A DNA stretch of 64,000 nucleotides, taken from assembly GCA_965216635.1 (NCBI GenBank), contig OZ244188.1, positions 219,205 to 283,204 on the forward strand, written 5' to 3'. Positions 24,063-49,800 of the stretch are shown in pieces (positions within the stretch are counted from its first letter, which is position 1; each line of letters opens with the position of its first letter). The notes beneath the pieces are model-generated. The model did no database searches, was not told where the DNA came from, and worked only from the letters and a program-made list of their open reading frames with translations. The translations under genes and the position numbers were made by a program. The stretch is from a bacterium. Its GTDB lineage: Bacteria > SAR324 > XYD2-FULL-50-16 > G965216635.

Positions 24063-24139
24063 CTTAAAACTAAATTTTGTGCTTTTAAAATTAAAGTTAT
24101 AGACTGTGCTATACTGCAAAATAAAAGATAAATATTATT

Positions 24140-24619: not shown

Positions 24620-24623
24620 TTTT

Positions 24624-25031: not shown

Positions 25032-25047
25032 AAAATAATTTTAATAA

Positions 25048-25177: not shown

Positions 25178-25610
25178 AGAAAACCAGAATTTGTGATATT
25201 TTTGAAATAAGGATTGTTACTTACTCAACAGTTTAATAGCAATACTTTCAGGCGTAGAGTTATTTATTTTGACATCTGGAATTTGGATTGCTTACTCTAG
25301 TATTCAATCCCATAAAAACAGGCAAATTTAACCATTTTTGCACAAAAATCGCCTTTTTTAATTATTTAATTCTAAAAAAAAACTTTTTGTAAATGCTTTA
25401 AAAATCTTATAAAATTCCTTGAATTAAGGAAAATATTGAATTTTTGTGAAAAAAAAGTTACTATTTTAATAAATTTATTAAAAACAATAAACGGATTTTA
25501 AGACTTTTTGGGGCGGTTGTTAAGAATGGTTTTAAATTTCCTTCGTTAAAGTTTTATATCATAAAAACTAAAACAGACATATTTCTTTGTCTGTGCGTAA
25601 TAAATAAAAT

Positions 25611-26132: not shown

Positions 26133-26147
26133 AAGAAAGAATATTCT

Positions 26148-26714: not shown

Positions 26715-26799
26715 TTAACTTACCAACCTCTTATATCCTTACCATTTTTATACCGATTCCTTAAAAATACTCTTCAATAAAAAAACAAATAAATGAAAA

Positions 26800-27048
26800 A
26801 TGGCTAGTTTAGCAGAAAAAGAGGTAGATGCAAATTTTGATTATTTTCAAACACTACTTCCAGAATTAAAACAAACTCACTTTGAAAAATTTGCTTTATT
26901 GCATAAAAAAAAAATTATTGAATTTTTTGATACTGCTAGAGATGCAGCAAAGTTTGGGATAGTAAAATTCGGAAAAGGCAATTTTTCTGTGCAACAAGTA
27001 GCTGATAGACGTGTTGATTTAGGATATCAAGGACATGTCCTCTTTTAG
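26800..27048 (+). CDS. Small hypothetical protein overlapping the downstream aspartic protease gene
   Basis: 82 aa; 14-nt overlap with 27035..27538 suggests translational coupling. Confidence 0.35.
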   Translation: MASLAEKEVDANFDYFQTLLPELKQTHFEKFALLHKKKIIEFFDTARDAAKFGIVKFGKGNFSVQQVADRRVDLGYQGHVLF

Positions 27049-27538
27049 GCAAACTTTAAATAAAAACAGGCAGTTTATTATTACTGTAAAAGTTATTGAG
27101 TCACCTTTGGAAAAAGAGAAATACAAAGACGGCACAGCACAAAGATTTCTTATTAAGGCGGAAACTCAAAAAGCTTTGATTGATACAGGTGCTAATACGA
27201 CTAGTATATCTCAAAAATATGCGAATGAATCAGGTTTAGTTGCTACTGGAAAAACCATTACAAGTACTGCTGGAGGAGATTGTAGAGAAAATTTATTTTT
27301 GATTGATATTGCTATTCCGATTACTCAAACTGCATTAAAACCTTTTACAGCAAAAGACGGTAGTCAGCAGTTTAAACCATTTATAATTGGAGAAGAACAT
27401 TGGGCTCACGCAGAACTTGAGGTTACTTCTTTTGCAGTTGGTGAAGGATATTATGGTTTTGATATTCTTTTAGGTATGGATATACTATCTCAAATGCATA
27501 TTACTATGTTTCATAATGAGATTATTATGTCTTTTTAA
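27035..27538 (+). CDS. Retropepsin-like (clan AA) aspartic peptidase
   Basis: ALIDTGANTTSIS contains the D-T/S-G-A catalytic motif in a hydrophobic-hydrophobic-D-T-G-A context; about 170 aa, typical of single-domain bacterial retropepsins. Confidence 0.55.
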   Translation: MSSFRQTLNKNRQFIITVKVIESPLEKEKYKDGTAQRFLIKAETQKALIDTGANTTSISQKYANESGLVATGKTITSTAGGDCRENLFLIDIAIPITQTALKPFTAKDGSQQFKPFIIGEEHWAHAELEVTSFAVGEGYYGFDILLGMDILSQMHITMFHNEIIMSF

Positions 27539-27588
27539 AAAATTGTAAAATTTATTACACAAGTTTTCTTAATTTTAAAAAATAAAAA

Positions 27589-28935
27589 ATGCTAACTTAC
27601 GCACAAATTGATAAGGATGTTTTAAAATCAATGGAGCCACCCGGCAAAAAATGGTTTTTGTGCATCGCAGTTTCTTTGACCGCTTTGGCTATGGGGATTT
27701 ATGCCCTTTATATCCAAGTTGCCGGAGGACTAGAGATTAGCGGAATTTCGCATCCTATTGGTTGGGGAGTTTATATTACTGACTTTGTTTTTTGGGTAGG
27801 TATTGCACACGCGGGAACCTTAATTTCTGCAGTGCTTTTTCTAACGCGAGCTCCTTACAGAACTTCTATCTATAGAACTGCAGAGGCGATGACAGTTTTT
27901 GCGGTAATGACGGCTGGGCTTTTTCCTATTATCCATGTAGGGCGGATTTGGAACGCCTACTGGTTAGTGCCTTATCCCAATCAAAGAGAGCTTTGGGTCA
28001 ATTTCAAATCTCCGCTCCTTTGGGATGTTTTTGCGGTTTCTACCTATATGTCGGTTTCCATTGCCTTTTTTATTGTAGGGTTGATTCCAGACTTTGCCAC
28101 AGTGCGAGATCGCACCAAAGGTTTGATGAAATTTTTTTACGGGTTTTTGGCATTAGGCTTTAGAGGCACCAATCACCAGTGGGTGCATTATTTGAGAGGC
28201 TACCTACTTTTTGCAGCACTGGCTACTCCTCTAGTTTTTTCCGTTCACTCCATAGTCTCTTGGGATTTTGCAATGTCTAGTATACCGGGCTGGCATACCA
28301 CAATTTTTGCTCCTTACTTTGTAGCAGGTGCGATTTTTTCGGGCTGTGCTATGGTCTTGACGATTGTGATTCCTATGAGAAAAATTTTTAGAGGCTTTGA
28401 AGAAATTATAAAAATAGAACACTTAGAGGCTTTGGGTAAACTGATTTTACTCACGGGAACGATTGTAACCTATTCTTACACCATAGAATTTTTTATTGCC
28501 TATTATAGCGGTAATCCTTACGAAAAAGCTATTTTTTGGTTTCGCCCTTTTGGAGAATTAAAGGGATTTTTCTGGTTGATGGTGCTTTGTAATTGTATTG
28601 GTCCCATTCCCCTTTGGAGAAAGAAAATTCGCACCAATCTCGCTGCTCTTTTTGTGATTTCTATTATTGTCAATGTAGGTATGTGGTTGGAAAGATTTAA
28701 CATAGTCGTCACTTCGCTGTCTCACGATTTTGTGCCTTTTGTTTGGAGCAACTACCAGTTTCAGTGGGGCGAAATTTGGATTACTATCGGTAGTTTTGGT
28801 TGGTTTTTCACTTGGTTTTTTCTATTTGTTAAAATTATGCCTTCTATGTCGGTTACAGAATTGAAGGAAGCATTGCCTCCAATGTTGCGAAAAGGTAAAA
28901 TGACACCTAGGCCAGTTTCTGGCTTCTATAAATAA
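27589..28935 (+). CDS. actC: Alternative complex III subunit C (NrfD/PsrC-like polytopic membrane subunit)
   Basis: 448 aa, about 10 TM helices, positioned between actB and actDEF. Confidence 0.8.
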   Translation: MLTYAQIDKDVLKSMEPPGKKWFLCIAVSLTALAMGIYALYIQVAGGLEISGISHPIGWGVYITDFVFWVGIAHAGTLISAVLFLTRAPYRTSIYRTAEAMTVFAVMTAGLFPIIHVGRIWNAYWLVPYPNQRELWVNFKSPLLWDVFAVSTYMSVSIAFFIVGLIPDFATVRDRTKGLMKFFYGFLALGFRGTNHQWVHYLRGYLLFAALATPLVFSVHSIVSWDFAMSSIPGWHTTIFAPYFVAGAIFSGCAMVLTIVIPMRKIFRGFEEIIKIEHLEALGKLILLTGTIVTYSYTIEFFIAYYSGNPYEKAIFWFRPFGELKGFFWLMVLCNCIGPIPLWRKKIRTNLAALFVISIIVNVGMWLERFNIVVTSLSHDFVPFVWSNYQFQWGEIWITIGSFGWFFTWFFLFVKIMPSMSVTELKEALPPMLRKGKMTPRPVSGFYK

Positions 28936-28937
28936 AT

Positions 28938-29080
28938 TAGAGACCTTTGAATTAGCGTTCTGTTTAGCCTATGCGTCGTTGAAAAAAATTTTTAACTCTT
29001 GAAATACTTGAGTATTCCTGCGAGCTAAATTTTTTTTTTGCCTTGCCTAGCCGTCACATAACGCAAATTCAAAGGTCTAT
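28938..29080. mobile_element. MITE-like repeat (about 143 bp) between actC and actD
   Basis: tagagacctttgaattagcgttctgtttagcctatgcgtcgttgaaaaa...ttgccttgcctagccgtcacataacgcaaattcaaaggtctat; clear inverted termini. Confidence 0.8.
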
Positions 29081-29097
29081 AAATTTTACTAAAAAAA

Positions 29098-34810: not shown

Positions 34811-34895
34811 ATTAGACATTAGCGTTTTGCTTAGCCTATGCTTCGTTAATTTTTTTTTATCCCTTGCCTAGCCATCACATAACACTAATGCAATA
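34806..34895. mobile_element. Degenerate MITE-like copy
   Basis: aaattagacattagcgttttgcttagcctatgcttcgtt...cccttgcctagccatcacataacactaatgcaata. Confidence 0.5.
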
Positions 34896-35036
34896 AGCCT
34901 CTTTTAAATTAGACATTATTCGGAATTTAGTTTTTTAAAATTTTTTTGCAGTGTCTAGTTTGTCCTAGCTAGTTTGTACTATCTGGCCAATTCAATAAAT
35001 CTCTTTTAAACGAAATATAAGCTAAACAGAATACTA

Positions 35037-37292: not shown

Positions 37293-37643
37293 TTAGGCAT
37301 TTGTTCTTTCACAGCGAATCAAAATAAAATCTGCTTTTGCTAAAGCCTTAGGTTTTAGACATTCTACTTCCAGCCATTTTAAACGAGTATCTTGAATCAA
37401 GAAATCAGCTACTTCATTCGCTAAAGTTTCTAGGAGAGAAAATTTTTTCTCTGATAAAAAGTTTTGTAACTTTTCACAAAGTTGGGAATAATCTACTGTC
37501 TGTTCTAAAGCATCTTTTTCTAGCTCTGGTTCTTTTTTCAGTCTGTATTTTAGATTAAAAACAACCCTTCTTTTTTTTTTCTGCTCCCAAGCAAAACAGC
37601 CAAGATAAACTTTTAGGGATAAGTTTTGAATTTCTACTTGCAT
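37293..37643 (-). CDS. folB: Dihydroneopterin aldolase
   Basis: 116 aa; MQVEIQNLSLKVYLGCFAWEQKKKRRVVFNL matches the FolB N-terminal GVYDWE...Q pattern and size. Confidence 0.7.
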   Translation of the reverse strand: MQVEIQNLSLKVYLGCFAWEQKKKRRVVFNLKYRLKKEPELEKDALEQTVDYSQLCEKLQNFLSEKKFSLLETLANEVADFLIQDTRLKWLEVECLKPKALAKADFILIRCERTNA

Positions 37644-37663
37644 ATTTTGAACTTTTTGAAAAG

Positions 37664-37737
37664 TAGCGATGGGGTGAATTGAACACCCGACCTTACGATT
37701 ATGAGTCGTACGCTCTAACCATCTGAGCTACATCGCC
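37664..37737 (-). tRNA. tRNA-Met (anticodon CAT; could be Ile2-lysidine type)
   Basis: Reverse complement reads GGCGATG-TA-GCTC-AGATGGTT-AGAGC-G-TACGA-CTCATAA-TCGTA-AGGTC-GGGTG-TTCAATT-CACCC-CATCGCT-A: full cloverleaf, T-loop TTCAATT, anticodon CAT. Confidence 0.85.
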
Positions 37738-37908
37738 TTTGCAATTGTTTTAGTCTAATCTGAATAATTTTCCAAGAAAAATTTTAAACAGAAATAGGAG
37801 CTTTAATACTTGGATGAAACTGATAATTTTCTAAAGCAAAATAATCAAGATAAACTTTTAGGGATAAGTTTTGAATTTCTACTTGCATATTTTAAACTTT
37901 TTGAAAAG

Positions 37909-37982
37909 TAGCGATGGGGTGAATTGAACACCCGAACTTATGATTATGAGTCGTATGCTCTAACCATCTAAGCTACATCGCC
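37909..37982 (-). tRNA. Diverged duplicate of tRNA(CAT), likely pseudo-tRNA
   Basis: Same 74 nt with 6 substitutions, including a C-A mismatch in the anticodon stem (ATACGA/TCATA). Sits in a duplicated block with a folB 5' fragment. Confidence 0.5.
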
Positions 37983-38055
37983 TTTATTTTTGAGATTTTT
38001 GAATTAACTCTATATAGATGCTAGGCAAGACGCGTGAACTCTACACAATAGCAAA

Positions 38056-38310
38056 TCAGTTATAAATATTACCTCTAAAATCTGCCTTATCAACAACAAT
38101 TTTATCGTCAAGCACATAAAAAATAAAACGAATTTTTCCGATTCGTAGCCGATAAAAACCTTTTGCCTTACCTTTAAGCATTTTTATATCTAAATTGACT
38201 TGATTGGTTTTAAAAAATTTTAAATCTTCAAGTTTTAATAAATATTTTGATGAATTCTTTAAACTACTGATAAATTTATAAACTGATTTTCTGATAATAA
38301 GGCGATACAT
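38056..38310 (-). CDS. RelE/ParE-family type II toxin
   Basis: 84 aa; ...GKAKGFYRLRIGKIRFIFYVLDDKIVV... matches the RelE/ParE G..YRLR.G.YR..Y core. Confidence 0.7.
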   Translation of the reverse strand: MYRLIIRKSVYKFISSLKNSSKYLLKLEDLKFFKTNQVNLDIKMLKGKAKGFYRLRIGKIRFIFYVLDDKIVVDKADFRGNIYN

Positions 38311-38312
38311 CT

Positions 38313-38489
38313 TTATAATTCTACAAAATCATCTTCCGTTATCTGTTTATCAAAAGCATCATTTTTATATATACTTTCAATTTCTGCTTGCTCCTTATCA
38401 GATATAAAATTGTATCTTGGGAAATATTCTTTTAGAGCATCTTGTATTAATGATTTTAATTCACTTTTTTTTATAATAACTGTATCCAT
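38313..38489 (-). CDS. Small antitoxin partner of the RelE/ParE toxin
   Basis: 58-aa ORF (MDTVIIKKSELKSLIQDALKEYFPRYNF...) not in track (<60 aa), ending 3 nt before the toxin start. Confidence 0.5.
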   Translation of the reverse strand: MDTVIIKKSELKSLIQDALKEYFPRYNFISDKEQAEIESIYKNDAFDKQITEDDFVEL

Positions 38490-38612
38490 AGTATTTTTAA
38501 TTTTATTTGGGATAGCTCTCCATTAGTTTGATTTAGATTAACCTAACCTAGCTAATTTTTAAAGTAAAAATATCAACAATTTTTGGCTTTTAAAATTTAT
38601 TTTTTTAAAGAA

Positions 38613-39446
38613 CTAAACAGAGATAGGAGCTTTAATACTTGGGTGAAACTGATAATTTTCCAAAGCAAAATCTTTCACTTCGTATTCTTCTAAAGAGTTT
38701 CTTTTTTTCAAAATAGCTAGTTTTGGTAAAGAGTAGGGTTTTCTCGTTAGTTGTAATTTTGCCTGCTCTAAATGGTTTTTATAAAGGTGAATGTCGCCTC
38801 CAGACCATATTAGTTCGCCTACTTCTAAACCACTATGCAAAGCGAGTAGGTGTGTAAGTAGAGCATAGCTTGCGATATTGAAAGGAGTTCCTAAAAAATA
38901 ATCTTGACTACGAGCAAAGAAAAATAAAGATAATTTATCTTGATTGACAAAAAGCTGTGTTAAAAGATGACAACAAGCTAAAGCCATTTTACCCTGTTTG
39001 ATGTTCTCTTGGGGGCTAATGTCTTCGTCTGGCAAATCTTCTACATTCCAACCGCTCAAAATCATCCTACGGCTATGAGGTTTTTTTTTTAGACTCCGCA
39101 GCAGTGTTTTTATTTGGTCGTAATTTTTACCTTTACTACCGCTCCAATTTCTCCACTGTTTGCCATAAATAGGACCTAAATTGCCATCCTCAGCTGCCCA
39201 TTTATCCCAGATACTACAACCGTTATCTTTTAAGAATTGAATGTTTGTATCACCGCGTAAAAACCATAAAAGCTCAGCTACTACGCTTTTAAAATGAATT
39301 TTTTTAGTGGTGATAATCGGAAAGCCAGCCTGTAAATCAAATCTTTGCTGTCTAGCAAATAAAGAAAAAGTGCCAGTACCAGTGCGGTCTTTTTTTTCTG
39401 CTCCTTCTTCTATAATCTGCTTCAATAAATCTAAATAACTTTGCAT
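38613..39446 (-). CDS. thyA: Thymidylate synthase
   Basis: 277 aa; DRTGTGT, LPPCH-equivalent region CCHLLTQLFV, sizes and C-terminus typical of ThyA. Confidence 0.85.
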   Translation of the reverse strand: MQSYLDLLKQIIEEGAEKKDRTGTGTFSLFARQQRFDLQAGFPIITTKKIHFKSVVAELLWFLRGDTNIQFLKDNGCSIWDKWAAEDGNLGPIYGKQWRNWSGSKGKNYDQIKTLLRSLKKKPHSRRMILSGWNVEDLPDEDISPQENIKQGKMALACCHLLTQLFVNQDKLSLFFFARSQDYFLGTPFNIASYALLTHLLALHSGLEVGELIWSGGDIHLYKNHLEQAKLQLTRKPYSLPKLAILKKRNSLEEYEVKDFALENYQFHPSIKAPISV

Positions 39447-39565
39447 TTTTTATGCGATTAAACTTAAAATTTTATATTTTTTGTTTTTCTGTAAGTGGTT
39501 TGTAGACAGGATTTTTTTCTTATTTTTTTCTTGGTTAGTTTTTTAGGTATTTTTATTGTTTTTAA

Positions 39566-39865
39566 TTATAACCCTAGTTCCGAATGGGAACCTGTTCTAA
39601 TTAAAATAAGTTCGTCATTTTTTATTCTATATTCTAAAAGCCAATCTCCTTTTATGTGGCATTCTTTGTTACCTTTACTACTACCTTTCAATTTATGGTC
39701 TTTATTGATTTCAGGGAGCTTGATTCCTTGGGCTAATAATCCAATAATTTCATTAAGATCATTAATATCTCTATTTTTGCTTTTACCTTGTCGGTTTATT
39801 TTTTCTAGATCGTCTTTAAATTTTTTTTTATATTTTAGAGTATAATTATATTCTGACTCTGACAT
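39566..39865 (-). CDS. YafQ/RelE-family type II toxin (mRNA interferase)
   Basis: 99 aa; KDHKLKGSSKGNKECHIKGDWLLEYRIKNDELILIRTGSHSEL matches the YafQ C-terminal signature (H...DW.L.Y......L.L.RTG.HS.L). Confidence 0.7.
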   Translation of the reverse strand: MSESEYNYTLKYKKKFKDDLEKINRQGKSKNRDINDLNEIIGLLAQGIKLPEINKDHKLKGSSKGNKECHIKGDWLLEYRIKNDELILIRTGSHSELGL

Positions 39866-40453
39866 CTAAATCCCTAAATCTTTTAGCATAGACTTAAAAT
39901 CACTATAACTTTTTGGTTCAGGTTCGGATAATAAAGCCACTATAGTTTCTCTGTTGGGAAGTCCAAATGATGGTATAGGATAATATGCTTTTATTTCTTC
40001 TTTGGGTATTTTGATATTTTTAATGTTTGGTTTATACAATCTTGCCCAAGGACTGTTTTCATCGTGAAATTCGTCATAAAAATACTTTTTACTCATTGAG
40101 GAATAAATTTCTATAACAGTATCTAGTATTTCTTCAGTCTTCCTCTGTAGGCTACTACTGGCATTATCTATTATAGATGGAATAGTTTTTTTACCATTTT
40201 TTAAAAAATAATATTTTTCTTTTATATTTTTATTACCATAATTCTTAAATTTACAATAAACCTCAGGTATGACAGGCCCATGTTCCCAAGCCTGAATTTC
40301 ATCTTTAAATAATTCTAAATTGTAATAAGCAGAACCTATTCCATAAGCACTGTAAACAAATTTGTTTAATTTAAAATTGTCTATCTCTTTAACTTTATCA
40401 ATAAAATAATTTGCTATTTGGACTGCGGTGTATTTATTATTTTCAGTTTCCAT
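39866..40453 (-). CDS. Panacea-domain (DUF4065) antitoxin, immediately upstream of the YafQ-like toxin
   Basis: QAWEHGPVIPEVYCKFKNYGN hallmark; 195 aa; its stop abuts the toxin start. Confidence 0.7.
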   Translation of the reverse strand: METENNKYTAVQIANYFIDKVKEIDNFKLNKFVYSAYGIGSAYYNLELFKDEIQAWEHGPVIPEVYCKFKNYGNKNIKEKYYFLKNGKKTIPSIIDNASSSLQRKTEEILDTVIEIYSSMSKKYFYDEFHDENSPWARLYKPNIKNIKIPKEEIKAYYPIPSFGLPNRETIVALLSEPEPKSYSDFKSMLKDLGI

Positions 40454-40740
40454 TTTTAGTATCGGGCAATTTCTATAAATATTTTTTAGGTTTTGGAATA
40501 AAGGATATATTTTGAAAATCGTCGCTTATATCAACAAATAAGTGATGATTTTCTTCTTTTATCAGCTCAAATATTCTCCAATTTTCTCTTTTTTTTGATC
40601 TCTGTAGATATTTTTTTTTAAGTATCTTTTTTCCCCTAATTTATGAAAGTCGTATTTGTTATCAAACATAAATTTTATAGTTGGTGATATTGAGTTTATT
40701 TAACTAAAAATAATAGTAAAAGTCAAGGTTTTATAAAAAA

Positions 40741-40870
40741 TTTTTCATACAATCAAATTTTGTTTGTCTAGCAAATAAAGAAAAAGTGCCAGTACCAGTG
40801 CGGTCTTTTTTTTCTGCTCCTTCTTCTATAATCTGCTTCAATAAATCTAAATAACTTTGCATTTTTTATG
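40741..40870. repeat. Duplicate of thyA promoter-proximal/5' coding region (copy b)
   Basis: ttttcatacaatcaaattttgtttgtctagcaaataaagaaaaagtgccagtaccagtgcggtc...ctaaataactttgcattttttatgcg identical to 39346-39465 (real thyA start). Confidence 0.9.
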
Positions 40871-42569
40871 CGCTAGGAGATAAATTTTCTTTAAAAAAAT
40901 TTAATATAGTGCGGGAAAATTTATCTTCTCGTTTTTCAATATCTTCTTTTAGCCAATCGTCTTTAGTATATCGTGATAATTTTTGAACCTCTGCTATATT
41001 AGAATTTTTATATACTTCTTTTTTTGTTTTGAAGTTATCATTGCTTGCTTGATTATTAGTTTTTTTCTCTATAGCAACCTTGTTGCCGAATTTTTCTCTA
41101 TATTTCTTTGCATCTTCTTCACTCCATCCATGATAATTCTTCCACCGCCAAGGAAAAATATGTTCAATCTCAAATTTTTCTGAAATCAATTCTTCTTGTT
41201 TTGGGTTTTGATAAGCGTGCACTAAAATTAGTCCTCTTGCTATTCTTAAGTTGTTTGCATTACTAATCCTAGTTTTCAAAGGTGGATTTTGGTATTTTTC
41301 TAATTCAATATTCATTTCATAATTTTTATTTTGGCATAAATTTTCACACTCTTTATGAGTATCGTTTTTAATTTCATTTACAGTTGGTTTTTCTATAAAT
41401 TTGACATACAAAAATGCAGTTAGTTTTTTTAAAAATTGTAGAAAATTTTCTTCAAAATTAGGTCCATCTTTTTTTTTCAGATAAAAAACGCTAGTGAGAT
41501 ATCTCCAATGTTCGTTTGGATAATTTTGTAAGCAATGCAGATATTTATACGTTTCTTGGATAATTTTTTTATTTTTAAAATCTAAATCTCTTCCATTTAT
41601 AGCTACCCAAAAAGTAGCTAGTTTATCTAAATTTTCCAGCAAATTAGGCTCTGCTAGTTTTTTGTAACCGTCTCTTGCATAAAATTTTCTTAAACTCACT
41701 TCAACTTCCTTTTTAGTATTTTTTGCTTTTCCTCCAAGATAGCGCATATAATAGGTAAATAAATTATTTAAAAAAATTTTAGCGGGTTCAAGTTTTTTTA
41801 CTTTTTCTACCAATTCTTTCCAATCATTAATAAATTTTTCTTTTTCTTCATCTGTTTTTTTTGTTTTATAAATTTCTGCTTTAAAAATATCAGAGTCATT
41901 CAAAGGCAATCCTCTATCGTTAAGTGTAGAAAAAATTGTTAAGGCAGCGCCAGCATTATTGCATTCAATAGGTAAAATGATACATTTATTTAGTATAACA
42001 CTGAGTAAAGAGTGCCATTTTAAAGGCTCATTTCTAGCGTATTTTTCGCATTGGTTATAAAAAAAATTATAATTTTTTTGGTACCTGTTTTTTTCATCAA
42101 TATCTAATTTTCCTTCTGTTAAAATGGTATGAAATATTTTATTATCACTTTCAGTAACAACTTTTGATTCAATATTTATTTTTGTTTTATTTTCTGCTCT
42201 ATGATAGGTTTCATCCACTTCCCAAATGCAAGGTTCAATATCTCTTTTTAAGATATCAATGTTACTATCTTCATTCATTTCTTCTAGTTTTTTATAAAAG
42301 GCTCGCAACAATAAAAAAAATGAAATAACTCTCTGCTGTCCGTCAATAACTTCTATATTTTTTTGTTCATCTTTGCTGGTAACTATTGTACCCAAAAAGT
42401 ATTCTTCCTCTTTTTTATCTTTAGAAAAATTATCTATATCATCCCATAAAATTTCACATTTTTCTTCATCCCAGCTGTAAGGTCTTTGGTATTCAGGAAT
42501 AATAAATTTCCCTTTCTTAATGCTTAAAAAACTTTTTATACTTTCTCTGCTTACATTTAATTCTGCCAT
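40866..42569 (-). CDS. GmrSD-family type IV (modification-dependent) restriction enzyme, DUF262+DUF1524
   Basis: N-terminal DUF262 with IPEYQRPYSW and DGQQR motifs; C-terminal DUF1524/HNH-like EIEHIFP...; 567 aa. Confidence 0.7.
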   Translation of the reverse strand: MAELNVSRESIKSFLSIKKGKFIIPEYQRPYSWDEEKCEILWDDIDNFSKDKKEEEYFLGTIVTSKDEQKNIEVIDGQQRVISFFLLLRAFYKKLEEMNEDSNIDILKRDIEPCIWEVDETYHRAENKTKINIESKVVTESDNKIFHTILTEGKLDIDEKNRYQKNYNFFYNQCEKYARNEPLKWHSLLSVILNKCIILPIECNNAGAALTIFSTLNDRGLPLNDSDIFKAEIYKTKKTDEEKEKFINDWKELVEKVKKLEPAKIFLNNLFTYYMRYLGGKAKNTKKEVEVSLRKFYARDGYKKLAEPNLLENLDKLATFWVAINGRDLDFKNKKIIQETYKYLHCLQNYPNEHWRYLTSVFYLKKKDGPNFEENFLQFLKKLTAFLYVKFIEKPTVNEIKNDTHKECENLCQNKNYEMNIELEKYQNPPLKTRISNANNLRIARGLILVHAYQNPKQEELISEKFEIEHIFPWRWKNYHGWSEEDAKKYREKFGNKVAIEKKTNNQASNDNFKTKKEVYKNSNIAEVQKLSRYTKDDWLKEDIEKREDKFSRTILNFFKENLSPSA

Positions 42570-42601
42570 AATAATTTTTAAAGTTTAGGTTTATAATACT
42601 A

Positions 42602-42664
42602 TAGACCTTTGAATTTGCGTTATGTTTAGCCTTGCCGTCGCATCAGCGAAATTCAAAGGTCTAT
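42602..42664. mobile_element. Short MITE (63 bp)
   Basis: tagacctttgaatttgcgttatgtttagccttgccgtcgcatcagcgaaattcaaaggtctat. Confidence 0.8.
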
Positions 42665-42779
42665 AATAAAAAAAAGTAAGTTTGTATAGTTTAGCAAAAA
42701 AAACTTCTTTGTCAAGTATAAAATATAATTTTTAGCAAAAAAACTTCTTTGTCAAGTATAAAATAGACTTTTGATTTTA

Positions 42780-42965
42780 ATGGTTTTTTTGTCTGGAAAT
42801 AATTTTTCTATTATAAGGAGTATGTTTTTCTATTTTCATACAATCAAATTTTGTTTGTCTAGCAAATAAAGAAAAAGTGCCAGTACCAGTGCGGTCTTTT
42901 TTTTCTGCTCCTTCTTCTATAATCTGCTTCAATAAATCTAAATAACTTTGCATTTTTTATGCGCT
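42780..42965. repeat. Junction block: 5' fragment of the 410-aa methyltransferase gene + duplicate of thyA 5'/promoter region (copy a)
   Basis: 42785-42850 is the reverse complement of atgaaaatagaaaaacatactccttataatagaaaaattattt (compare 46040-46085). 42838-42990 repeats the thyA start plus 40 bp of its upstream region. Confidence 0.85.
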
Positions 42966-43862
42966 TAAACTTAAAATTTTATATTTTTTTTCTACTAATT
43001 TTAATTCCTTATTTTTATTTTCCCAAATATTAACAAAATCTTTGTTTTGCATAGTGCGAATTTTCCCCAGATAGATTGAAACAAAAGAGTCATTAATTTT
43101 TGTTTCTTTTGCTTCTACTACATTTTTTTTTGCTATTTCCACATAGTCAGAATCTAGCTCTATTCCAATATAGTTTCTTCCTAATTGTTTTGCTGCTATT
43201 GCTGTAGTTCCAGTTCCTATAAATGGATCTAAAACCACATCGTTTTCTTCTGTGGACATTAAAATCAACCTTTCTAAAAGAGGAATGGGTAACTGGCAAG
43301 GATGGTTATCTCGTCTTTTTTTGTGACGGAGTCTATGAATATCTGTCCATACATCTGAAAGTAAGGGACCGAATCCATGGGCTTGATCTTTTTTACCGCC
43401 ATAATCTTTTAGAAATTCTTTACAACTACGGCAACTAGAATGCGGAGCTCTAATATCATAAAATTTAAAATCTTTATAATTTTGCGAACGAGTGTAGTAT
43501 AAAATTCCATAATGATTTGGTAGTAAAGTTTTGCCAAGCGGAACCCCACCAGAGTCCCAAGAAATCCAGTGTTTAAAGCAAGCAATTTTATTTAGATATC
43601 CTGCATAGTAATTAAGCCAACGAGGAATGTTATGCACAAAAATAGAACCGCTAGGTTTTGTTACTCTTACCATTTCACTAATCCATTCTTTACACCAATT
43701 CAAATAGTCTTCTTGTTCTTTCGTATCTTCATAGGAAGTATAATTTTTTTTGAGGTTAAAAGGTGGGTCAGCAAAGCTCATATCTGCAGACTCATTTGGT
43801 ATTTTTTTTAGCCATTGCAGGCAATCTCCTTCTATAATTTTATTGAGGTATTTTTTAAGCAT
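42957..43862 (-). CDS. Beta-class N6-adenine/N4-cytosine DNA methyltransferase
   Basis: N-terminal NKIIEGDCLQWLKKIP...FADPPFN (motif IV) and C-terminal VLDPFIGTGTTAIAA (motif I); pfam N6_N4_Mtase order IV then I. Confidence 0.8.
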   Translation of the reverse strand: MLKKYLNKIIEGDCLQWLKKIPNESADMSFADPPFNLKKNYTSYEDTKEQEDYLNWCKEWISEMVRVTKPSGSIFVHNIPRWLNYYAGYLNKIACFKHWISWDSGGVPLGKTLLPNHYGILYYTRSQNYKDFKFYDIRAPHSSCRSCKEFLKDYGGKKDQAHGFGPLLSDVWTDIHRLRHKKRRDNHPCQLPIPLLERLILMSTEENDVVLDPFIGTGTTAIAAKQLGRNYIGIELDSDYVEIAKKNVVEAKETKINDSFVSIYLGKIRTMQNKDFVNIWENKNKELKLVEKKYKILSLSA

Positions 43863-43864
43863 AA

Positions 43865-44848
43865 TTATTTTTTAAAAGTTTGAATGAGAAGTTTTTTAAA
43901 TCTTTCTAACTCTTCTTTATGAAAAGTAAAAACTTCATTATAAGCGCTAACCATTCTTTTTAAATCTCCTTTTCTTACATACCATCCAATACCATCTATA
44001 AATCCAATAAATTTCGCTTTTGGATAATGAGATTTGATAAGATAATCTACAGAAATTTCTGTTTTAGATTTGTCTCCCTGTCCTGATGAAGTTGTAACTA
44101 AAAATGAACTTTCACCAATAATTAAAGGATTTCTTTTGTCTGGTATTATAAAATCCATTGTTCTTTTAGTGGTAGGAGCGTTAGTAACTAATTCGTTTAA
44201 ATCTCCTTTTTCAAAAGGAATATTTAAATCTTTTAATATTTTTTCTATCAGTGTTTCAGGATTATTTTCTTTTTTTCCAGAATAGCTCCCTTTTTCTTTA
44301 TACCTTACTAGAGTATCTATCATTTCTGGTATTTCAAATTTAAGTTTTGAAATACTTAATTTTTTGAGCTCAAATAAAGGAATAGTTTTAGCTAAAAATG
44401 GAATAGTAGAACCTTCAAAAAAAATATTCACTATCCCTTTCCTAAAAGATTGATTTTCTTTTATTATTTTTCTAATCTGACTGTCTGACCATTCTTTAAT
44501 ATCACTACTTTTTTCTTCAAACCATTCTTCTTTATTTACTAATCTATTAAGTTCATCATCATTAACTACTCTAATAATTGTTGTTAATCTTTTTAAAGTT
44601 TCATTAGAAAAACCTGTTAATGCCAATAACGCTCTCAAACCATTTTCTTTTTCAAGGAGTATTTTTTCAAATAACTCTTTCTTTAGTCCATTATTTTCAA
44701 TTTCATTTTTTAAAAATAAAAGTATTTCTTTTAATGAATTCAGATAACCCTCATATTTTTCTTCAAAAATTGGGTTGAAAAAATAAAAAGTATTTTTACT
44801 GATTATAGTCTGAAATTTTGATTCTATTGTTGGTAAGTTTGTTTGCAT
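43865..44848 (-). CDS. Hypothetical protein, candidate restriction endonuclease of the R-M cassette
   Basis: 327 aa, sandwiched between two MTase genes with 2-4 bp spacing; possible PD-(D/E)xK-like segment MDFIIPD...IIGESSF...K; no firm motif. Confidence 0.35.
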   Translation of the reverse strand: MQTNLPTIESKFQTIISKNTFYFFNPIFEEKYEGYLNSLKEILLFLKNEIENNGLKKELFEKILLEKENGLRALLALTGFSNETLKRLTTIIRVVNDDELNRLVNKEEWFEEKSSDIKEWSDSQIRKIIKENQSFRKGIVNIFFEGSTIPFLAKTIPLFELKKLSISKLKFEIPEMIDTLVRYKEKGSYSGKKENNPETLIEKILKDLNIPFEKGDLNELVTNAPTTKRTMDFIIPDKRNPLIIGESSFLVTTSSGQGDKSKTEISVDYLIKSHYPKAKFIGFIDGIGWYVRKGDLKRMVSAYNEVFTFHKEELERFKKLLIQTFKK

Positions 44849-44852
44849 AGCA

Positions 44853-46085
44853 TTATTTTAAATTTTTAAAAAATAGAATAGATTCATTTTTCATACTATT
44901 TTGAAGACCCCTAATAGGCTTGCTCATTTTTAGATTTAAACACAAATTTTGTTCTTTTGCTATTTCAATAATTTTATTTTCTAAATTTACTCCTTTTGTT
45001 TGAATCTCATTTGTTCCTATAATTATAATAATAAAAGAATCTTTCTTAGAAACTCTCTTCATTTCTTTTAAAGCTACTGCCATTTTTTCAAAATACAATT
45101 CTAATTTACTTTCTATTCCTCGTCCTGACAAGCCAATCATTTCTTCTCTTAAGGTATTCAGATTATATCCGAGGTATTCTAGTTGAGGTTGATCGTTCTT
45201 TAGATAATCAATAGCAAAAGAATATGGAGGAGAAGTTATAATAGCGTCCACAGAATCGTCGTCAATAGGTAATTGTAATGCACTTGCTTGAATTATTTTA
45301 CTGTTGCCTATTTTTAATTTAACTTCTTTTCTTGCTTTTTGAAAATTACCTATAGTCGCAACATATCTTTCTAATACTCTCGGGAAAAGTTTTTCAATAG
45401 AAGCACTAATTCTATTTGAGAATCCCATAGCATCTAAAAAAGCCAACAAAACTATTTCATAGTATCTTTTTTTATCACAAGGACTATTTGACAAATAATT
45501 AAGGATTTTTTTACTTTTAAGTCCATTTAATAATCCTATTGGATTTTTTGTAATTTCTTGCAATATTTCAATATCTAAATTTAAAGCGAAGGTTTTTACT
45601 TGACCCATTAAATTACAAAAAGGACTCAAATCTACAGCAATAGAATTAAGATTAAGCAAATTTGCTTCTACTGAAAAAGTAGAACTCCCAGCCATTGGAT
45701 CTAAAACTACATCTCCTTTTTTAATTTTTAAGATATTTAATAAAGCTCTAATTAATTGTGGATGAAATTTTCCACGGTATGGAAAAAGACTATGTGTAGA
45801 ATAACCTGTAGAATATTTTCCATTTAAGAAAAATACTTTTGTTCTAAATGAACTTTCTTTATGAATTTCTTCAAGATTGTGTAAATTACAAGTTTTAAAA
45901 TGAATCGTTTCTATTCCAGCCACCGTTTTGAAAAAGGCACTTCTATCAATTAATTCTGTTTTTGATAAATTTTCATATTCCCACAAAGCCAAATCTAATT
46001 CAAAAATATCATCTGTACCTTCAATTAACTGGTAACCTTCTGGAAATAATTTTTCTATTAAAGGAATATGTTTTTCTATTTTCAT
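44853..46085 (-). CDS. Gamma-class-like DNA methyltransferase (motif I before motif IV)
   Basis: HSLFPYRGKFHPQLIRALLNIL...GDVVLDPMAGSSTFSVEA (AdoMet motif I) then IITSPPYSF (motif IV); 410 aa. Confidence 0.7.
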   Translation of the reverse strand: MKIEKHIPLIEKLFPEGYQLIEGTDDIFELDLALWEYENLSKTELIDRSAFFKTVAGIETIHFKTCNLHNLEEIHKESSFRTKVFFLNGKYSTGYSTHSLFPYRGKFHPQLIRALLNILKIKKGDVVLDPMAGSSTFSVEANLLNLNSIAVDLSPFCNLMGQVKTFALNLDIEILQEITKNPIGLLNGLKSKKILNYLSNSPCDKKRYYEIVLLAFLDAMGFSNRISASIEKLFPRVLERYVATIGNFQKARKEVKLKIGNSKIIQASALQLPIDDDSVDAIITSPPYSFAIDYLKNDQPQLEYLGYNLNTLREEMIGLSGRGIESKLELYFEKMAVALKEMKRVSKKDSFIIIIIGTNEIQTKGVNLENKIIEIAKEQNLCLNLKMSKPIRGLQNSMKNESILFFKNLK

Positions 46086-47620
46086 ACAATCAAATTTTGT
46101 TTGTCTAGGAAGCGGTAGTGCACAGCTTCGGCGAGGTGGGCGACTGCTACCGTTTCTTTTTTGTCAAGGTCTGCGATGGTGCGAGAAATTTTCAAAATTC
46201 TATCATAAGCTCTACTAGAAAAATTAATTTTTTCCATTGTGGCACGCAGAAAATTAGAACCTTCTTTATTCAGTTCACAAAAAATTTCAATTTGCCTGCG
46301 ACTCATATCAGAATTTGTTTTAGTTGTACTTTTTTTAAATCGTTCTTTTTGGATAGCAGCAACAGCCATCACTTTTTCTAAAACCATACGACTGCTAGAT
46401 TCCGTTTCTGTTTGCTGCATTTCATCAAAGGAAAGATGGGGCATTTCTATTTGTAGGTCAATTCTGTCTAATAGTGGTCCAGAAATACGCGAGCGATATT
46501 TTTGAATTTGGTAGGGAGTGCAATTACAACTATGCAGCGAGCTTCCATAATAACCGCAAGGGCAGGGGTTCATTGCACATACAAGCAAAAATCCAGTGGG
46601 TAGGGTGATACTCATATTTGCTCGGGAAATAGTGACCTCTTTGGCTTCCATAGGTTGTCTAAGGTTTTCTAAAGTTGTTCTTTGAAATTCTGGAAGTTCA
46701 TCTAAAAAAAGCACTCCATTATGAGCGAGGGATGCTTCTCCAGCTTTAGGTTGACTACCTCCTCCAATAAGTCCAGCGGGTGAAATTGTATGGTGCGGAG
46801 AGCGGAAAGGTCTTTCAGTTGAGATTTCTTCGGTTTTTCTTAAATTTCCAGTCGCTGAATGAATTTGGATTAAGCTTAAACACTCTGCTATACTCAACGG
46901 AGGTAGGATTGTTTTTAATCTACGAGCAAGCATTGTTTTTCCAGTTCCTGGGGGACCACAAAATAAAATATTGTGATTACCAGCAGCAGCTATTTCTAAA
47001 GCTCTTTTTGCTTTTTGTTGTCCTTTTACTTCGTTTAAATCTTCAGCGTAGTAGGGCAATTCTATTTTAGGTGGCTGATATTGAGCTAGAATAAGTTCTT
47101 TTCCAAAATCAAAAAAATCTATCACCTGTTTTAAATTTTCGGCTAGATATATTTCCATTCCTTCTACTAGGCTTGCTTCTTTTTGGTTTTCTGCAGGTAA
47201 AATGATTTTGCGGATGCCTTTTTTTTTAGCAGCTAAAAGAATTGGCAAGATGCCCTGCACCGAGCGAATTTTTCCTTGCAAAGACAATTCTCCGACTAAA
47301 AGAAATTCTTTGATTTTGTCTTTGGGTATGTTGTGATTAGCGGCAAGAATAGCAATCGCCAAGGGTAAGTCAAATCCTGTGCCCTGTTTTTTTAAGTTCA
47401 CAGGGGCAAGATTGACTATGACTTTATAAAGATAAAAACCTTTGAGGAGATAGTTGAGAGAAGCAAAAATACGGTCTCTACTTTCACGAATAATATTATC
47501 GGGCAAGCCTACGATATTAAAATAACTAGTGCCTGAACTAACCTCTACTTCTACAGTTACTAGGTGGGCTTCTATACCCCAAAGAGTGGCGGTGTTTGTA
47601 ATTGCAATACTAGAAGCCAT
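46082..47620 (-). CDS. comM: Mg-chelatase-like AAA+ protein ComM/YifB
   Basis: Lon-like N-domain, Walker A GPPGTGKTML, Walker B VLFLDE, C-terminal Mg-chelatase domain. Probable start MASSIAITNT (47620). Last six codons KQNLIV are supplied by the cassette junction sequence. Confidence 0.8.
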   Translation of the reverse strand: MASSIAITNTATLWGIEAHLVTVEVEVSSGTSYFNIVGLPDNIIRESRDRIFASLNYLLKGFYLYKVIVNLAPVNLKKQGTGFDLPLAIAILAANHNIPKDKIKEFLLVGELSLQGKIRSVQGILPILLAAKKKGIRKIILPAENQKEASLVEGMEIYLAENLKQVIDFFDFGKELILAQYQPPKIELPYYAEDLNEVKGQQKAKRALEIAAAGNHNILFCGPPGTGKTMLARRLKTILPPLSIAECLSLIQIHSATGNLRKTEEISTERPFRSPHHTISPAGLIGGGSQPKAGEASLAHNGVLFLDELPEFQRTTLENLRQPMEAKEVTISRANMSITLPTGFLLVCAMNPCPCGYYGSSLHSCNCTPYQIQKYRSRISGPLLDRIDLQIEMPHLSFDEMQQTETESSSRMVLEKVMAVAAIQKERFKKSTTKTNSDMSRRQIEIFCELNKEGSNFLRATMEKINFSSRAYDRILKISRTIADLDKKETVAVAHLAEAVHYRFLDKQNLIV

Positions 47621-49052
47621 AAAAATTATTTTTAGTAAATAGCTTAGACTGTGCATTTAATTTAGCATAAAAATCTCCTAAAAGATAGATAGAGCCAGTC
47701 ACCAAAAAAATAGAATAATTTGCAAACATTCCTTTAAGGAATTTTTCTATAACCTCTTCTAAAGTTTGCGGGCTGTTGGTTTTTAAATGAGCTTTTTTTA
47801 AAGTAGTTTGAATACTAGCAATATCGCCAGCTTTGGAGTGTTTAAAATCTATGGGTAAAAACTCTATATTCAGGTGAGAGAATTTTTTGAGGGATACAAA
47901 AATTTCCTTTTTTTGTACCCAATGGATGGCACAAAGAATTTTATCTTTAAAATGATGTTGCTGGAGATGTTTTGCTAAAGATTCTATTCCTTGAGAGTTA
48001 TGAGCAGCGTCTAAAAGCAAAGTAGGTTTTATTTTTGAAATATAATGCAACCGTGCGGGCCAATGGCTCTTTTGTAGACTGGATGCTATTTTTTTTTTTG
48101 TTAGCCTTTTTTGAGGAGGCACAATAGAAAAGTAAGAAGCGAGAGCTGTAGCTATATTTTCTAATTGGTAGGTAGATATTGTCTGGTTTTTTACTGGGTT
48201 TTTTGCTGGGTTTTTTATTGGGTTTTTTACTGGGCTTTTTATTGGGCTTTTTATTGGGCTTTTATTCTTTGTCCGAATGGGAATTTCTAAAGTTTGTTCT
48301 GTTTTTTTTTTTTGCCATTTTTTTTGTTTAGAGAGAAAAAAATAGGTGTCTTTTCTTTTTTCTAAAAAAAAATCGTTCCCAAAAATTGTTTTTTCATTAT
48401 TCGGGAATTTATCTTGCAAAAGTTTTAAAACAGAATTTTCTTGTGAAGAGCTGATGATAAGGGATTTTTTTTTAACAATACCAAATTTTTCTTGAGCGAT
48501 TTCAAGCAAACTATTCCCTAGAAATTCTGTGTGATCTAAAGAAATAGGAGAAAAAATACAGGCAAGACTTTTAGGGATTGCATTGGTAGAATCCATTCTT
48601 CCTCCCATACCCGTCTCTAATAAAATGTAGTCTGGTTTTTTTTTTTTAAACCAAAAAAAAGCAAGTCCGATACTAAATTCAAAAAAAGTCGGTTTGACGA
48701 GCCAATTTTTATCATTCTTAGAATAAGGGTCTATGCAGCAAATTTCACAAATTTCATCAAAATTTTCTTTTAACTCTGCATCGGAAATCTGTTTGGCTTG
48801 AAAACGAAATCTTTCATTGTAGTCTAATAAATGCGGTGAGGTTGTCATACATACTTTAAAACCACTATCTATTAAGAGTCTTTCTAAAAAACTTAGAATA
48901 GAGCCTTTGCCATTTGTGCCTGCTATGTGAATGATGGCTGGGTGGATCTGTGGATTACCTAGTTTCTCTAAAAATTTATACGTTGTCTCTAATCCTAGTC
49001 TAATATGAAACTCTCCTAATCTATAAATAAAATCCAGCAAATAGTTATCCAT
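47610..49052 (-). CDS. folC: Folylpolyglutamate synthase/dihydrofolate synthase (Mur ligase family)
   Basis: HIAGTNGKGS P-loop and Mur ligase central/C-terminal domains. Start probably MDNYLLD (49052). Carries an in-frame low-complexity insert KSPIKSPIKSPVKNPIKNPAKNPVKN. Confidence 0.75.
   Translation of the reverse strand: MDNYLLDFIYRLGEFHIRLGLETTYKFLEKLGNPQIHPAIIHIAGTNGKGSILSFLERLLIDSGFKVCMTTSPHLLDYNERFRFQAKQISDAELKENFDEICEICCIDPYSKNDKNWLVKPTFFEFSIGLAFFWFKKKKPDYILLETGMGGRMDSTNAIPKSLACIFSPISLDHTEFLGNSLLEIAQEKFGIVKKKSLIISSSQENSVLKLLQDKFPNNEKTIFGNDFFLEKRKDTYFFLSKQKKWQKKKTEQTLEIPIRTKNKSPIKSPIKSPVKNPIKNPAKNPVKNQTISTYQLENIATALASYFSIVPPQKRLTKKKIASSLQKSHWPARLHYISKIKPTLLLDAAHNSQGIESLAKHLQQHHFKDKILCAIHWVQKKEIFVSLKKFSHLNIEFLPIDFKHSKAGDIASIQTTLKKAHLKTNSPQTLEEVIEKFLKGMFANYSIFLVTGSIYLLGDFYAKLNAQSKLFTKNNFYGF
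48175..48255. repeat. 15-bp tandem repeat array (about 6 units) inside the folC coding sequence
   Basis: ttttttactggg/ttttttgctggg/ttttttattggg units; in-frame (5 codons each). Confidence 0.8.
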
Positions 49053-49056: not shown

Positions 49057-49710
49057 TTAGTCTTCAGTGTTACGAAGCATCGGCACAAAAGAAACTCCAC
49101 AAATTTTTCTAATAGCCAGTTTCGGGTTCTTTGGATTTTCGGATTCTTTGGTTATCTCTAGTAAATCTTGATATCCTCTTTCTCCTACGGGGGTGATAAT
49201 TTTTCCTCCTATTTTTAACTGACTGACTAATTCTTTAGGAATGAGTTTGGGAGCGCAGGAGATAAGAATAGCATCATAAGGAGAATGCTCTTGCCAGCCT
49301 TGGTGTCCATCCCCTAGTTTTAAGTGAACGTTAGAAAGAGCCATTTTTTTTAAATTATTTTTTCCCTTTAAATGAAGATAGCGAATTCTTTCAACACTAA
49401 AAACTTGCCCCTGTGAACTTAACAAAAGTTTTGCTAAGATAGCTGTTTGGTAACCGCACCCTGTGCCTATTTCCAAGATATTTTGACACTTTGCTTTTAA
49501 GACAAGTTCTGTCATTAAGGCTACAATGTAAGGTTGTGATATTGTCTGTCCCGCTCCTATAGGTAGAGGTCTATCGTCGTAGGCTTGGAGTTGGTAGTTT
49601 TCTGCTACAAAAAGATGACGAGGCACCTGCTCCATAGCCTTTAATAGATCTGGATTTTGAACGCCCCGAAAAATGATTTGCTCGCGTATCATTTTTTCGG
49701 TTTTTTTCAT
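49057..49710 (-). CDS. pcm: Protein-L-isoaspartate O-methyltransferase
   Basis: GTGCGYQTAILA AdoMet motif and ISQPYIVALM; track start 49728 lies inside the tandem repeat array, so MKKTEK (49710) is preferred. Confidence 0.75.
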   Translation of the reverse strand: MKKTEKMIREQIIFRGVQNPDLLKAMEQVPRHLFVAENYQLQAYDDRPLPIGAGQTISQPYIVALMTELVLKAKCQNILEIGTGCGYQTAILAKLLLSSQGQVFSVERIRYLHLKGKNNLKKMALSNVHLKLGDGHQGWQEHSPYDAILISCAPKLIPKELVSQLKIGGKIITPVGERGYQDLLEITKESENPKNPKLAIRKICGVSFVPMLRNTED

Positions 49711-49721
49711 CCAGTTATTTT

Positions 49722-49800
49722 TTGCCATTGATTTTTTGCCAATTATTTTTTACCAATTATTTTTTACCAGTTATTTTTTGCCAGTATTTTTTTTATGGGT
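49722..49800. repeat. 15-bp tandem repeat array (5-6 units) upstream of pcm
   Basis: ttattttttgccat tgattttttgccaa ttattttttaccaa ttattttttaccag ttattttttgccag; unit related to the folC internal repeat. Confidence 0.8.

Follow-up and report, generated by a model that had tools for sequence, protein, structure and literature searches.

A probable natural merodiploid in a SAR324 bacterium: thyA-tRNA-folB alleles with and without a RelE-type toxin-antitoxin cassette, stacked in tandem

In Neisseria, the minimal mobile elements of Saunders and Snyder reportedly consist of alternative cassettes between two conserved genes, which are exchanged by homologous recombination in the flanks after transformation. 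The insertion of restriction-modification (R-M) gene complexes with long target duplication is said to have been described by Nobusato et al. in 2000, and homology-facilitated illegitimate recombination (HFIR) during natural transformation reportedly by de Vries and Wackernagel in 2002. R-M complexes of the class called "insertion with long target duplication" are inserted with direct repeats of 46-423 bp that are single at the empty site, and they carry no mobility genes; the class comes mostly from transformable species, and its mechanism is still not known (Furuta, Abe and Kobayashi 2010, PMC2853133). HFIR is defined in PMC3240628, and a passage in PMC3874152, citing Handa 2001 and Sadykov 2003, describes chromosomal addictive modules as resisting allelic replacement. 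Here we describe the thyA-tRNA-folB region of a SAR324 bacterium (XYD2-FULL-50-16; assembly GCA_965216635.1), in which a tRNA gene and the adjoining ends of both neighbouring genes are duplicated around a RelE-like toxin-antitoxin (TA) pair. All coordinates are positions in the window, the whole 64,000-nucleotide (nt) stretch that was analysed (contig OZ244188.1, positions 219,205 to 283,204, forward strand), and all genes of the thyA-tRNA-folB region lie on its minus strand. We consider the region to be, probably, a natural tandem merodiploid produced by recombinational allele stacking, that is, by one illegitimate joint together with homologous exchange.

Along the minus strand, the gene order is thyA, an open reading frame (ORF) of 58 amino acids (aa), an ORF of 84 aa, a first tRNA gene (tRNA2), a leader with a 5' fragment of folB, an orphan 3' end of thyA, a 47-nt spacer, a second tRNA gene (tRNA1), and intact folB. 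The outer genes are an intact thyA ORF (38613-39446; Pfam PF00303) and an intact folB ORF encoding a 116-aa dihydroneopterin aldolase (37293-37643; PF02152, E 3.6e-24). Between them lie two pairs of direct repeats. The first (D1) is 152 nt long and was found by the repeat finder at 37589-37740 (copy a) and 37834-37985 (copy b) with 94.7% identity (self-BLAST E 1e-62). Copy a comprises tRNA1, a 19-nt leader, and folB codons 1-18, and copy b comprises tRNA2, the leader, and the folB 5' fragment. The second pair (D2) is 58 nt long with 94.8% identity (self-BLAST E 1e-18): copy a (37785-37842) is the orphan last 58 nt of thyA with its stop codon TAA at 37784-37786, and copy b (38614-38671) is the corresponding end of the intact gene. 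Both repeat pairs are real and well past chance. The homology of D2 ends exactly at the thyA stop codon and that of D1 ends 3 nt 5' of the tRNA; the duplicated flanks amount to 58 nt of thyA and 54 nt of folB. The thyA copies bound a segment of 829 nt that holds the TA genes and the extra tRNA block. An earlier reading made from the letters alone (the sequence-only reading) had reported a duplicated tRNA, leader and folB block of ~150 bp, a thyA 3' end between the tRNA copies, and thyA repeats flanking the TA genes with the extra tRNA block. All three were recovered here, with two adjustments: folB contributes 18 codons rather than 15, and the repeat coordinates, although at the right sites, were off by up to ~14 nt. 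A promoter and terminator scan of 37.2-38.8 kb showed no enrichment when compared with shuffled sequences.

The stretch 37834-37842 (9 nt) belongs both to D1 copy b and to D2 copy a, and this microhomology, ATTTTGCTT, marks the head-to-tail joint between the two units, where folB codon 18 runs into thyA 58 nt ahead of the thyA stop. The 9 nt are common to folB codons 16-19 and the thyA 3' end; specifically, folB reads TAT TTT GCT TGG and thyA reads GAT TTT GCT TTG at this point. Because ATTTTGCTT lies in the same frame in both genes, the joint yields an in-frame chimeric ORF of 34 codons (37784-37888), which on translation consists of folB codons 1-18 followed by the last 16 thyA residues (MQVEIQNLSLKVYLDYFALENYQFHPSIKAPISV*). 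This folB-thyA ORF is a by-product of the joint.

The comparison with relatives drew on three metagenome samples and one metagenome-assembled genome (MAG) from NCBI, of which the nearest share 90% aa and ~83% nt identity in thyA. A scan of the genome collection with thyA gave a best match of only 60% identity and no close species representative, and an exact metagenome scan for a window-specific 38-mer from the tRNA and leader returned 0 matches. Look-ups of identical proteins for the window's thyA and folB, and for protein P0001, likewise returned no record. The source genome is a 2.39-Mb contig from a deep-branching bacterium; by LeuS, its nearest named matches are MAGs labelled Proteobacteria, SAR324, and Myxococcales at 59-63% identity, which supports no finer placement than a deep uncultured lineage. 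Two arrangements were seen among the relatives. The empty allele (contig L081) runs thyA, 47 nt, tRNA, folB, and aligns continuously with window positions 37842-37235, a stretch that covers the orphan thyA end, the 47-nt spacer between thyA stop and tRNA (37738-37784), tRNA1, and folB; this is unit a of the window, and D1 copy a belongs to it. The filled allele (contigs L086, L087, L089, L090, L091, and L092) runs thyA, antitoxin, toxin, ~150 nt, tRNA, folB, and aligns with 39465-37836, including 19 nt upstream of tRNA2. Filled-allele relatives are colinear over 38001-37836 with unit b, which includes D1 copy b. In keeping with the sequence-only reading, the TA pair is a cassette that is present or absent at the thyA-tRNA junction. 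The spacers of the two alleles (47 nt vs. ~630 nt with the TA genes) share no remnant, and since the whole spacer differs, the pattern fits cassette exchange via flanking homology, not a clean insertion. Our reading of these alignments is that the window holds both alleles in tandem. All relatives had one tRNA per thyA-folB unit, with neither a folB-thyA joint nor a thyA repeat. The duplication is therefore specific to this genome; a simple ancient tRNA gene duplication would have left both copies conserved in the relatives.

We note that contigs from sample ERZ26869290 were used for local gene order only. Several of them (L081, L082/L085, L086-L089, L095, and L096) are palindromic concatemers in which 2-4-kb segments around thyA are joined head to head and tail to tail; some of their joints are chimeric and fall within genes, and the contigs resemble artefacts of amplification or long reads. 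Independent backing for the TA allele comes from two short-read scaffolds (L090 and L091) and by the NCBI MAG contig (L092).

These alleles bear directly on what the sequence-only reading had called the signature of an integrative element. According to that interpretation, the TA pair with its tRNA block would be a site-specific element at the thyA-tRNA-folB junction, and the thyA 3' copies would be its attL and attR. Direct repeats do flank the cassette, the cassette is present or absent among relatives, and a tRNA gene is involved. Filled relatives, however, hold one thyA 3' end and one tRNA, and therefore the repeat does not stem from TA insertion and is no att site; none of the six filled contigs (L086, L087, and L089-L092) has the repeat that an att core would leave. 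The anatomy also differs from that of an element, considering that one repeat is 58 nt of coding sequence ending at a stop codon and the other a whole tRNA plus the folB 5' end. Inside the repeats, the downstream target is present once more, fused to the thyA 3' end at the 9-nt microhomology; the bracketed DNA is therefore built like a tandem segmental duplication or an illegitimate joint, and the entire spacer differs between alleles. With regard to mobility genes, Pfam detected no recombinase in the 829-nt segment or in any scanned ORF of 37-47 kb, and thus none within 10 kb. Within 37843-38612, just two ORFs reach 40 aa, namely those of the 84-aa toxin and the 58-aa putative antitoxin, and the cassette ORFs of 37-47 kb matched YafQ, Panacea, GmrSD, methyltransferases (MTases), a DpnII-like enzyme, and ComM. 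The joints are neither folded nor palindromic (z about 0), and the cassette showed no similarity to plasmid or phage records. An integrative element is thus already largely refuted, and we regard it as highly improbable.

In the preferred reading, allele stacking, the segment from 58 nt ahead of the thyA stop through folB codon 18 occurs twice, head to tail. The upstream unit b, on intact thyA, carries the TA-filled allele (antitoxin, RelE-like toxin, and tRNA2), and the downstream unit a, on intact folB, carries the empty allele (47-nt spacer and tRNA1). A single illegitimate, in-frame joint at the 9-nt microhomology links the units, the rest being homologous to alleles that segregate singly in relatives. 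The most likely pathway would start from close-strain DNA with the other allele, which would have crossed over by homology within a flanking gene at one end and been joined at a microhomology at the other. This would amount to HFIR or, equivalently, to Campbell-type integration of a circularised fragment; the incoming allele would be added beside the resident one without replacing it, and no site-specific recombinase would be required. As in a merodiploid, the copies lie head to tail with one novel microhomology joint. They are not identical apart from later mutations, considering that the unrelated spacers match different alleles, and a second DNA input is therefore required. As in HFIR, the 9-nt joint is accompanied by long homology on the thyA and folB sides, and the homology ends at the thyA stop and the tRNA 5' end, which are the edges of conserved sequence. 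Given direct repeats of 58 and 152 nt, the locus should be resolvable by RecA to either single allele: recombination between the D2 copies would loop out an 829-nt circle with the TA genes, and recombination between the D1 copies would remove the 245-nt empty unit. Selection through the addictive TA pair would work against a return to the empty allele, and tRNA2, now redundant, is probably decaying.

The differences between the copies bear on their age and origin. Copies a and b are ~5% apart, compared with ~17% to the relatives, and units a and b share ~15 states (in the T-loop, leader, folB codons, and thyA 3' end) that set the window apart from all relatives; they are therefore sister copies from this or a very close species. 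Using the relatives as outgroup, 9 of the 11 polarisable differences are derived in unit b. Four of these lie in tRNA2 and one in the folB fragment; the other four, in the functional thyA 3' end, are synonymous substitutions from AT to GC, TAA to TAG among them. Derived changes numbered none in the unconstrained orphan thyA fragment, where D2 copy a is ancestral at all four sites that differ from the real thyA end, and two in the real folB. The pattern at the thyA end is opposite to that of simple in-situ decay and suggests that unit b came from a diverged donor. These substitutions would be consistent with unit b arriving with its TA cassette from a diverged conspecific, with the decay of tRNA2 following later. 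On balance, we lean slightly towards the TA unit as the one that came in. An incoming empty unit is possible but clearly less probable, and an in-situ microhomology duplication followed by allele conversion is a little less probable again.

The last of these, which we judge unlikely, holds that replication slippage or illegitimate recombination at ATTTTGCTT duplicated a 245-nt (or 829-nt) segment, one copy of which was later converted to the other allele by homologous recombination with foreign DNA. The microhomology joint and the head-to-tail order are both in line with such a history. It requires, however, at least two events where one suffices, and the conversion would need a crossover inside the 58-nt or the 152-nt arm. 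Four derived changes in the functional thyA end and none in the orphan fragment would also be unexpected.

Both tRNA(CAT) genes were called by ARAGORN, and they scored 72 bits (tRNA1; 37663-37737) and 64 bits (tRNA2, the toxin-proximal copy; 37908-37982) against Rfam RF00005 (threshold 29). tRNA1 is intact and, in the alignment, identical to the relatives save for two T-loop positions. With regard to unique changes, tRNA1 has none and tRNA2 has four (C13U, G26A, G41A, and G46U), all at positions that are invariant in tRNA1 and seven relatives. G41A breaks the 29:41 pair of the anticodon stem, and all four changes go from GC to AT and so follow the mutational bias of this genome (34% GC). The cloverleaf of tRNA2 still reaches 64 bits, yet C29 and A41 are mismatched in it, and G46 and C13 are both missing. 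Our results indicate that tRNA2 is probably freed from constraint and decaying. The sequence-only reading had described stem mismatches in the upstream tRNA and had suggested a pseudo-tRNA. The damaged copy is the upstream one in gene orientation, but it has one C-A mismatch in the anticodon stem; pseudo-tRNA status is plausible from the four unique changes but unproven, considering that ARAGORN and Rfam still call the gene. The anticodon stem is without the three G-C pairs typical of initiators, and since ARAGORN names every CAT anticodon Met, elongator Met and lysidine-modified Ile2 are indistinguishable with these tools.

The 84-aa protein (38056-38310) fell below every threshold when searched alone (Pfam PF05016, E 0.12; TIGR02385, E 0.043; PDB RelE3, E 0.03). 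An exhaustive HMMER search recovered 155 homologues, and PF05016 matched 39 of the 72 that were aligned. A profile of these 72 homologues matched archaeal aRelE (1wmi_A, 8.6e-15), RelE3 (3bpq_B, 2.5e-12), E. coli RelE (1e-5), and also YoeB. In the alignment, R54 and R61 are invariant and R56, R79, and Y83 nearly so. The AlphaFold (AF2) model has a mean predicted confidence (pLDDT) of 92.4, and its best Foldseek matches were RelE, YoeB, and YafQ (TM-score 0.7-0.77). From the homologue profile and the predicted fold, we assign the protein to the RelE type within the RelE/ParE superfamily, which agrees with the earlier designation as a RelE/ParE toxin. The 58-aa ORF (38313-38489) lies 2 nt upstream of the toxin gene and accompanies the toxin in every TA-bearing relative. 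It had no Pfam or NCBIfam match and fell into no antitoxin family, and therefore the name "antitoxin" is inferred from its position. Two other genomes carry homologues of the toxin flanked by murG and an aas-like gene, and the TA cassette had no match among plasmid and phage records. In two genomes with a toxin homologue at that site, the gap between a riboflavin-synthase gene (Pfam Lum_binding) and an ABC-F gene (L093, 4040-5929; L094, 5553-5798) is another small variable slot between core genes, occupied by GmrSD in one genome and by a ParD-like gene in the second.

Two further arrays of cassettes flanked by gene stubs were identified in the window. The first fills the gap between comM and thyA (39447-46111) with three cassettes, namely an R-M system of two MTases and a DpnII-like endonuclease, a GmrSD cassette, and a Panacea antitoxin with YafQ. 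Composite stub 1 (133 nt; 40742-40874, minus strand; self-BLAST) separates GmrSD from Panacea-YafQ, and composite stub 2 (42833-42965, minus strand), 100% identical to it, separates the R-M cassette from GmrSD. Each stub combines a 13-nt thyA leader and thyA codons 1-33 with the final 33 nt of comM, stop codon included, and the two parts meet at CTAGACA. This motif is common to thyA codons 31-33 and the 3' end of intact comM (46079-46108, minus strand), the source of the comM half. In distant relatives comM directly adjoins thyA, and in close relatives there is one comM-thyA cassette, either an R-M system or an Mrr-type enzyme, adjoining the whole of thyA.

The second array occupies the actB-actC gap (23181-27588) of the alternative-complex-III operon. 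Its cassettes (UDG-like; Panacea antitoxin with a 135-aa ORF; DUF7931; an aspartyl-protease-like ORF) are each followed by a ~59-nt copy of the actC 5' end within a 175-nt composite (88% identity). The composite at 23907-24081 (plus strand) is made of ~59 nt of the actC 5' end, matching the real actC start at 27570-27628, and ~115 nt of other sequence; its second copy lies at 25024-25195. A 458-aa AAA_15/AAA_21 (AbiEii-like/OLD-like) ATPase gene stands alone between actA and actB (18638-20014), with no flanking repeat of 25 nt or more. A CTAGA motif common to the thyA/comM and actC joints was noticed post hoc and rejected as evidence, considering that the window holds 135 occurrences, as expected by composition. 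An attC-like or folded site was likewise rejected, as single-stranded DNA folding of the joints and composite stubs on both strands gave z of -0.8 to +0.1; Rfam returned no match other than the tRNAs.

It is unlikely that two identical illegitimate thyA/comM joints formed independently. Once formed, the composite may have been propagated by homologous recombination, in which a circle loops out between repeats and re-integrates or double-crosses elsewhere. The in-situ duplication considered above for the folB side finds some support here: the second unit upstream of thyA keeps ~50 nt of the 5' end of MTase410 past the comM stub, as the duplication of an R-M-bearing unit and its later overwriting would leave behind, and identical joints in two units fit duplication with unequal crossing-over. 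A tentative possibility, about which we remain doubtful, is that the three arrays (comM-thyA, thyA-tRNA-folB, and actB-actC) reflect one systematic mode of cassette accretion that is free of recombinases. A composite stub, with the 5' end of the downstream gene and the 3' end of the upstream gene, would then serve as a portable pair of homology arms. A cassette would loop out by RecA as a stub-bearing circle and join a conspecific genome by Campbell integration or double crossover. The result would be an integron-like defence and TA array without an integrase, of which the duplicated, 100%-identical 133-nt composite would be the signature, and post-segregational killing by the R-M and TA cassettes might favour stacking over replacement.

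Cassette identities suggest that exchange has been recent. The TA genes are 90-97% identical to those of the relatives (about 91% nt for window positions 38058-38509 vs. L086-L092) and the R-M cassette (42957-46085) shares 92-95% nt with L096, compared with about 80-84% nt for core thyA and folB. The cassettes are closer to the relatives than the flanking core genes are, and we therefore consider them to have been exchanged recently between lineages. Together with the toxin homologues at the murG site, these comparisons show that the cassettes move between lineages and loci with no linked recombinase.

Several points weigh against allele stacking as we have set it out. The 9:2 asymmetry of derived changes is modest and only marginally significant (one-sided binomial about 0.03). 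In addition, if unit b came from a donor with no other copy of its tRNA, the stem-breaking change must postdate stacking, and the asymmetry then mixes polymorphism that was imported with later decay. The comparison covered relatives outside the species, so that both the direction of the event and the number of its steps (one or two) are deduced. The empty allele comes from L081 only, an artefact-like palindromic concatemer, although the arrangement recurs four times within it. The two identical thyA-5'/comM-3' joints cannot both be independent, and they imply homologous propagation or a directed process.

Moreover, the tandem structure is known from the assembled contig alone, and an assembler might have concatenated TA-filled and empty strain alleles that co-existed in the sample. 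Both alleles do co-occur in a related population within one sample, and the contigs of that sample are clearly artefactual concatemers. In the window, however, the 9-nt joint is clean and in frame and the duplicated flanks of only 58 and 54 nt are not read-scale. The four changes of tRNA2, including a broken stem, are hard to square with the sole copy in a real strain, and the architecture is repeated at two further loci on this contig. We consequently give an assembly artefact very little credence.

Other repeats and defence genes were also observed in the window. A family of palindromic repeats resembling miniature inverted-repeat transposable elements (MITEs) or repetitive extragenic palindromes (REPs), with termini TATAGACCTTTGAATTTGCG...CGCAAATTCAAAGGTCTATA, is 65-165 nt long and occurs about once per 5 kb, mostly between genes (1408-1482, 2770-2859, 3123-3171, 8702-8772, 10948-10996, 14753-14962, 16223-16374, 28933-29083, 34851-34899, 42597-42667, 56860-56934, 59073-59162, and 63856-63945). 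One of them, at 42590-42672, forms a hairpin on folding (z -5.8), and no transposase for the family was seen in the window. A DarT toxin (PF14487) and a DarT1-associated NADAR antitoxin (PF22397, E 8e-88), both on the minus strand, adjoin a MITE-like repeat (62400-63633). Tandem repeats include a 12-nt unit in folC (KSPIKNP repeats; 48185-48268), a 14-nt unit upstream of pcm (49692-49793), an 83-nt duplication (53094-53259), and an 18-nt unit that encodes MQTKEI repeats at the N-terminus of a putative outer-membrane protein (53254-53397).

When compared with described systems, the closest class is the "insertion with long target duplication" of Kobayashi. As in that class, a small addictive or defence cassette without transposase or integrase lies between direct repeats, which measure tens to hundreds of bp, are single-copy at the empty site, and permit amplification or loop-out. 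Specifically, the repeat exceeds 30 bp (58 nt, with a period of 829 nt) and aligns to one empty-site copy in L081, followed by the 47-nt spacer. The insert, however, is not an R-M system unrelated to its target but a RelE-type TA pair with a copy of the downstream target; it holds a tRNA and a folB 5' copy, which gives two pairs of repeats that share the microhomology at the joint. Moreover, the cassette replaces the entire spacer instead of interrupting it, and TA-bearing relatives are without the duplication, which is therefore not obligatory in cassette arrival.

The joint itself would fit HFIR, in which one end is formed by homologous recombination and the other by a microhomology of a few bases (3-10 nt); here, a 9-nt joint is combined with long flanking homology. 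HFIR usually adds foreign DNA, often deleting recipient DNA, and in our case an alternative allele of the same locus would have been added, with a duplication as the result. As far as the cited passage presents the work of Handa 2001 and Sadykov 2003, addictive-module merodiploids likewise hold addictive and competing alleles side by side with repeats that permit amplification or resolution. As presented there, those were laboratory R-M selections with much larger rearrangements, whereas this is a natural TA structure of 245/829 nt. By analogy, the TA pair may have a selective role in keeping both alleles. If stacking is selected by toxin addiction, the locus would be a natural counterpart of the laboratory experiments on "resistance to allelic replacement".

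Islands and prophages that target tRNA genes by tyrosine recombinases also show a tRNA gene beside a variable cassette and bracketing direct repeats. At this locus there is no recombinase, the repeat is absent from the filled sites of relatives, and one repeat takes in a whole tRNA with 54 nt of the gene that follows, the other 58 nt of the gene before. Repeats around a tRNA-adjacent cassette should thus not be taken for an integrase footprint without comparing empty and filled sites. The minimal mobile elements of Neisseria resemble the locus in that alternative cassettes lie between the same two conserved genes; those are said to replace one another, and here the alleles form a stack, separated by stubs of the genes on either side. 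The case is unusually legible, considering that both parental alleles are present in relatives, the joint is resolved to 9 nt, the boundaries fall at conserved gene ends, and the same architecture recurs at two more loci nearby. It indicates that general recombination is enough to place small TA and defence cassettes beside essential genes. In relation to the described systems, the locus adds a new case of an addictive cassette that was stacked by recombination, or inserted with long target duplication.

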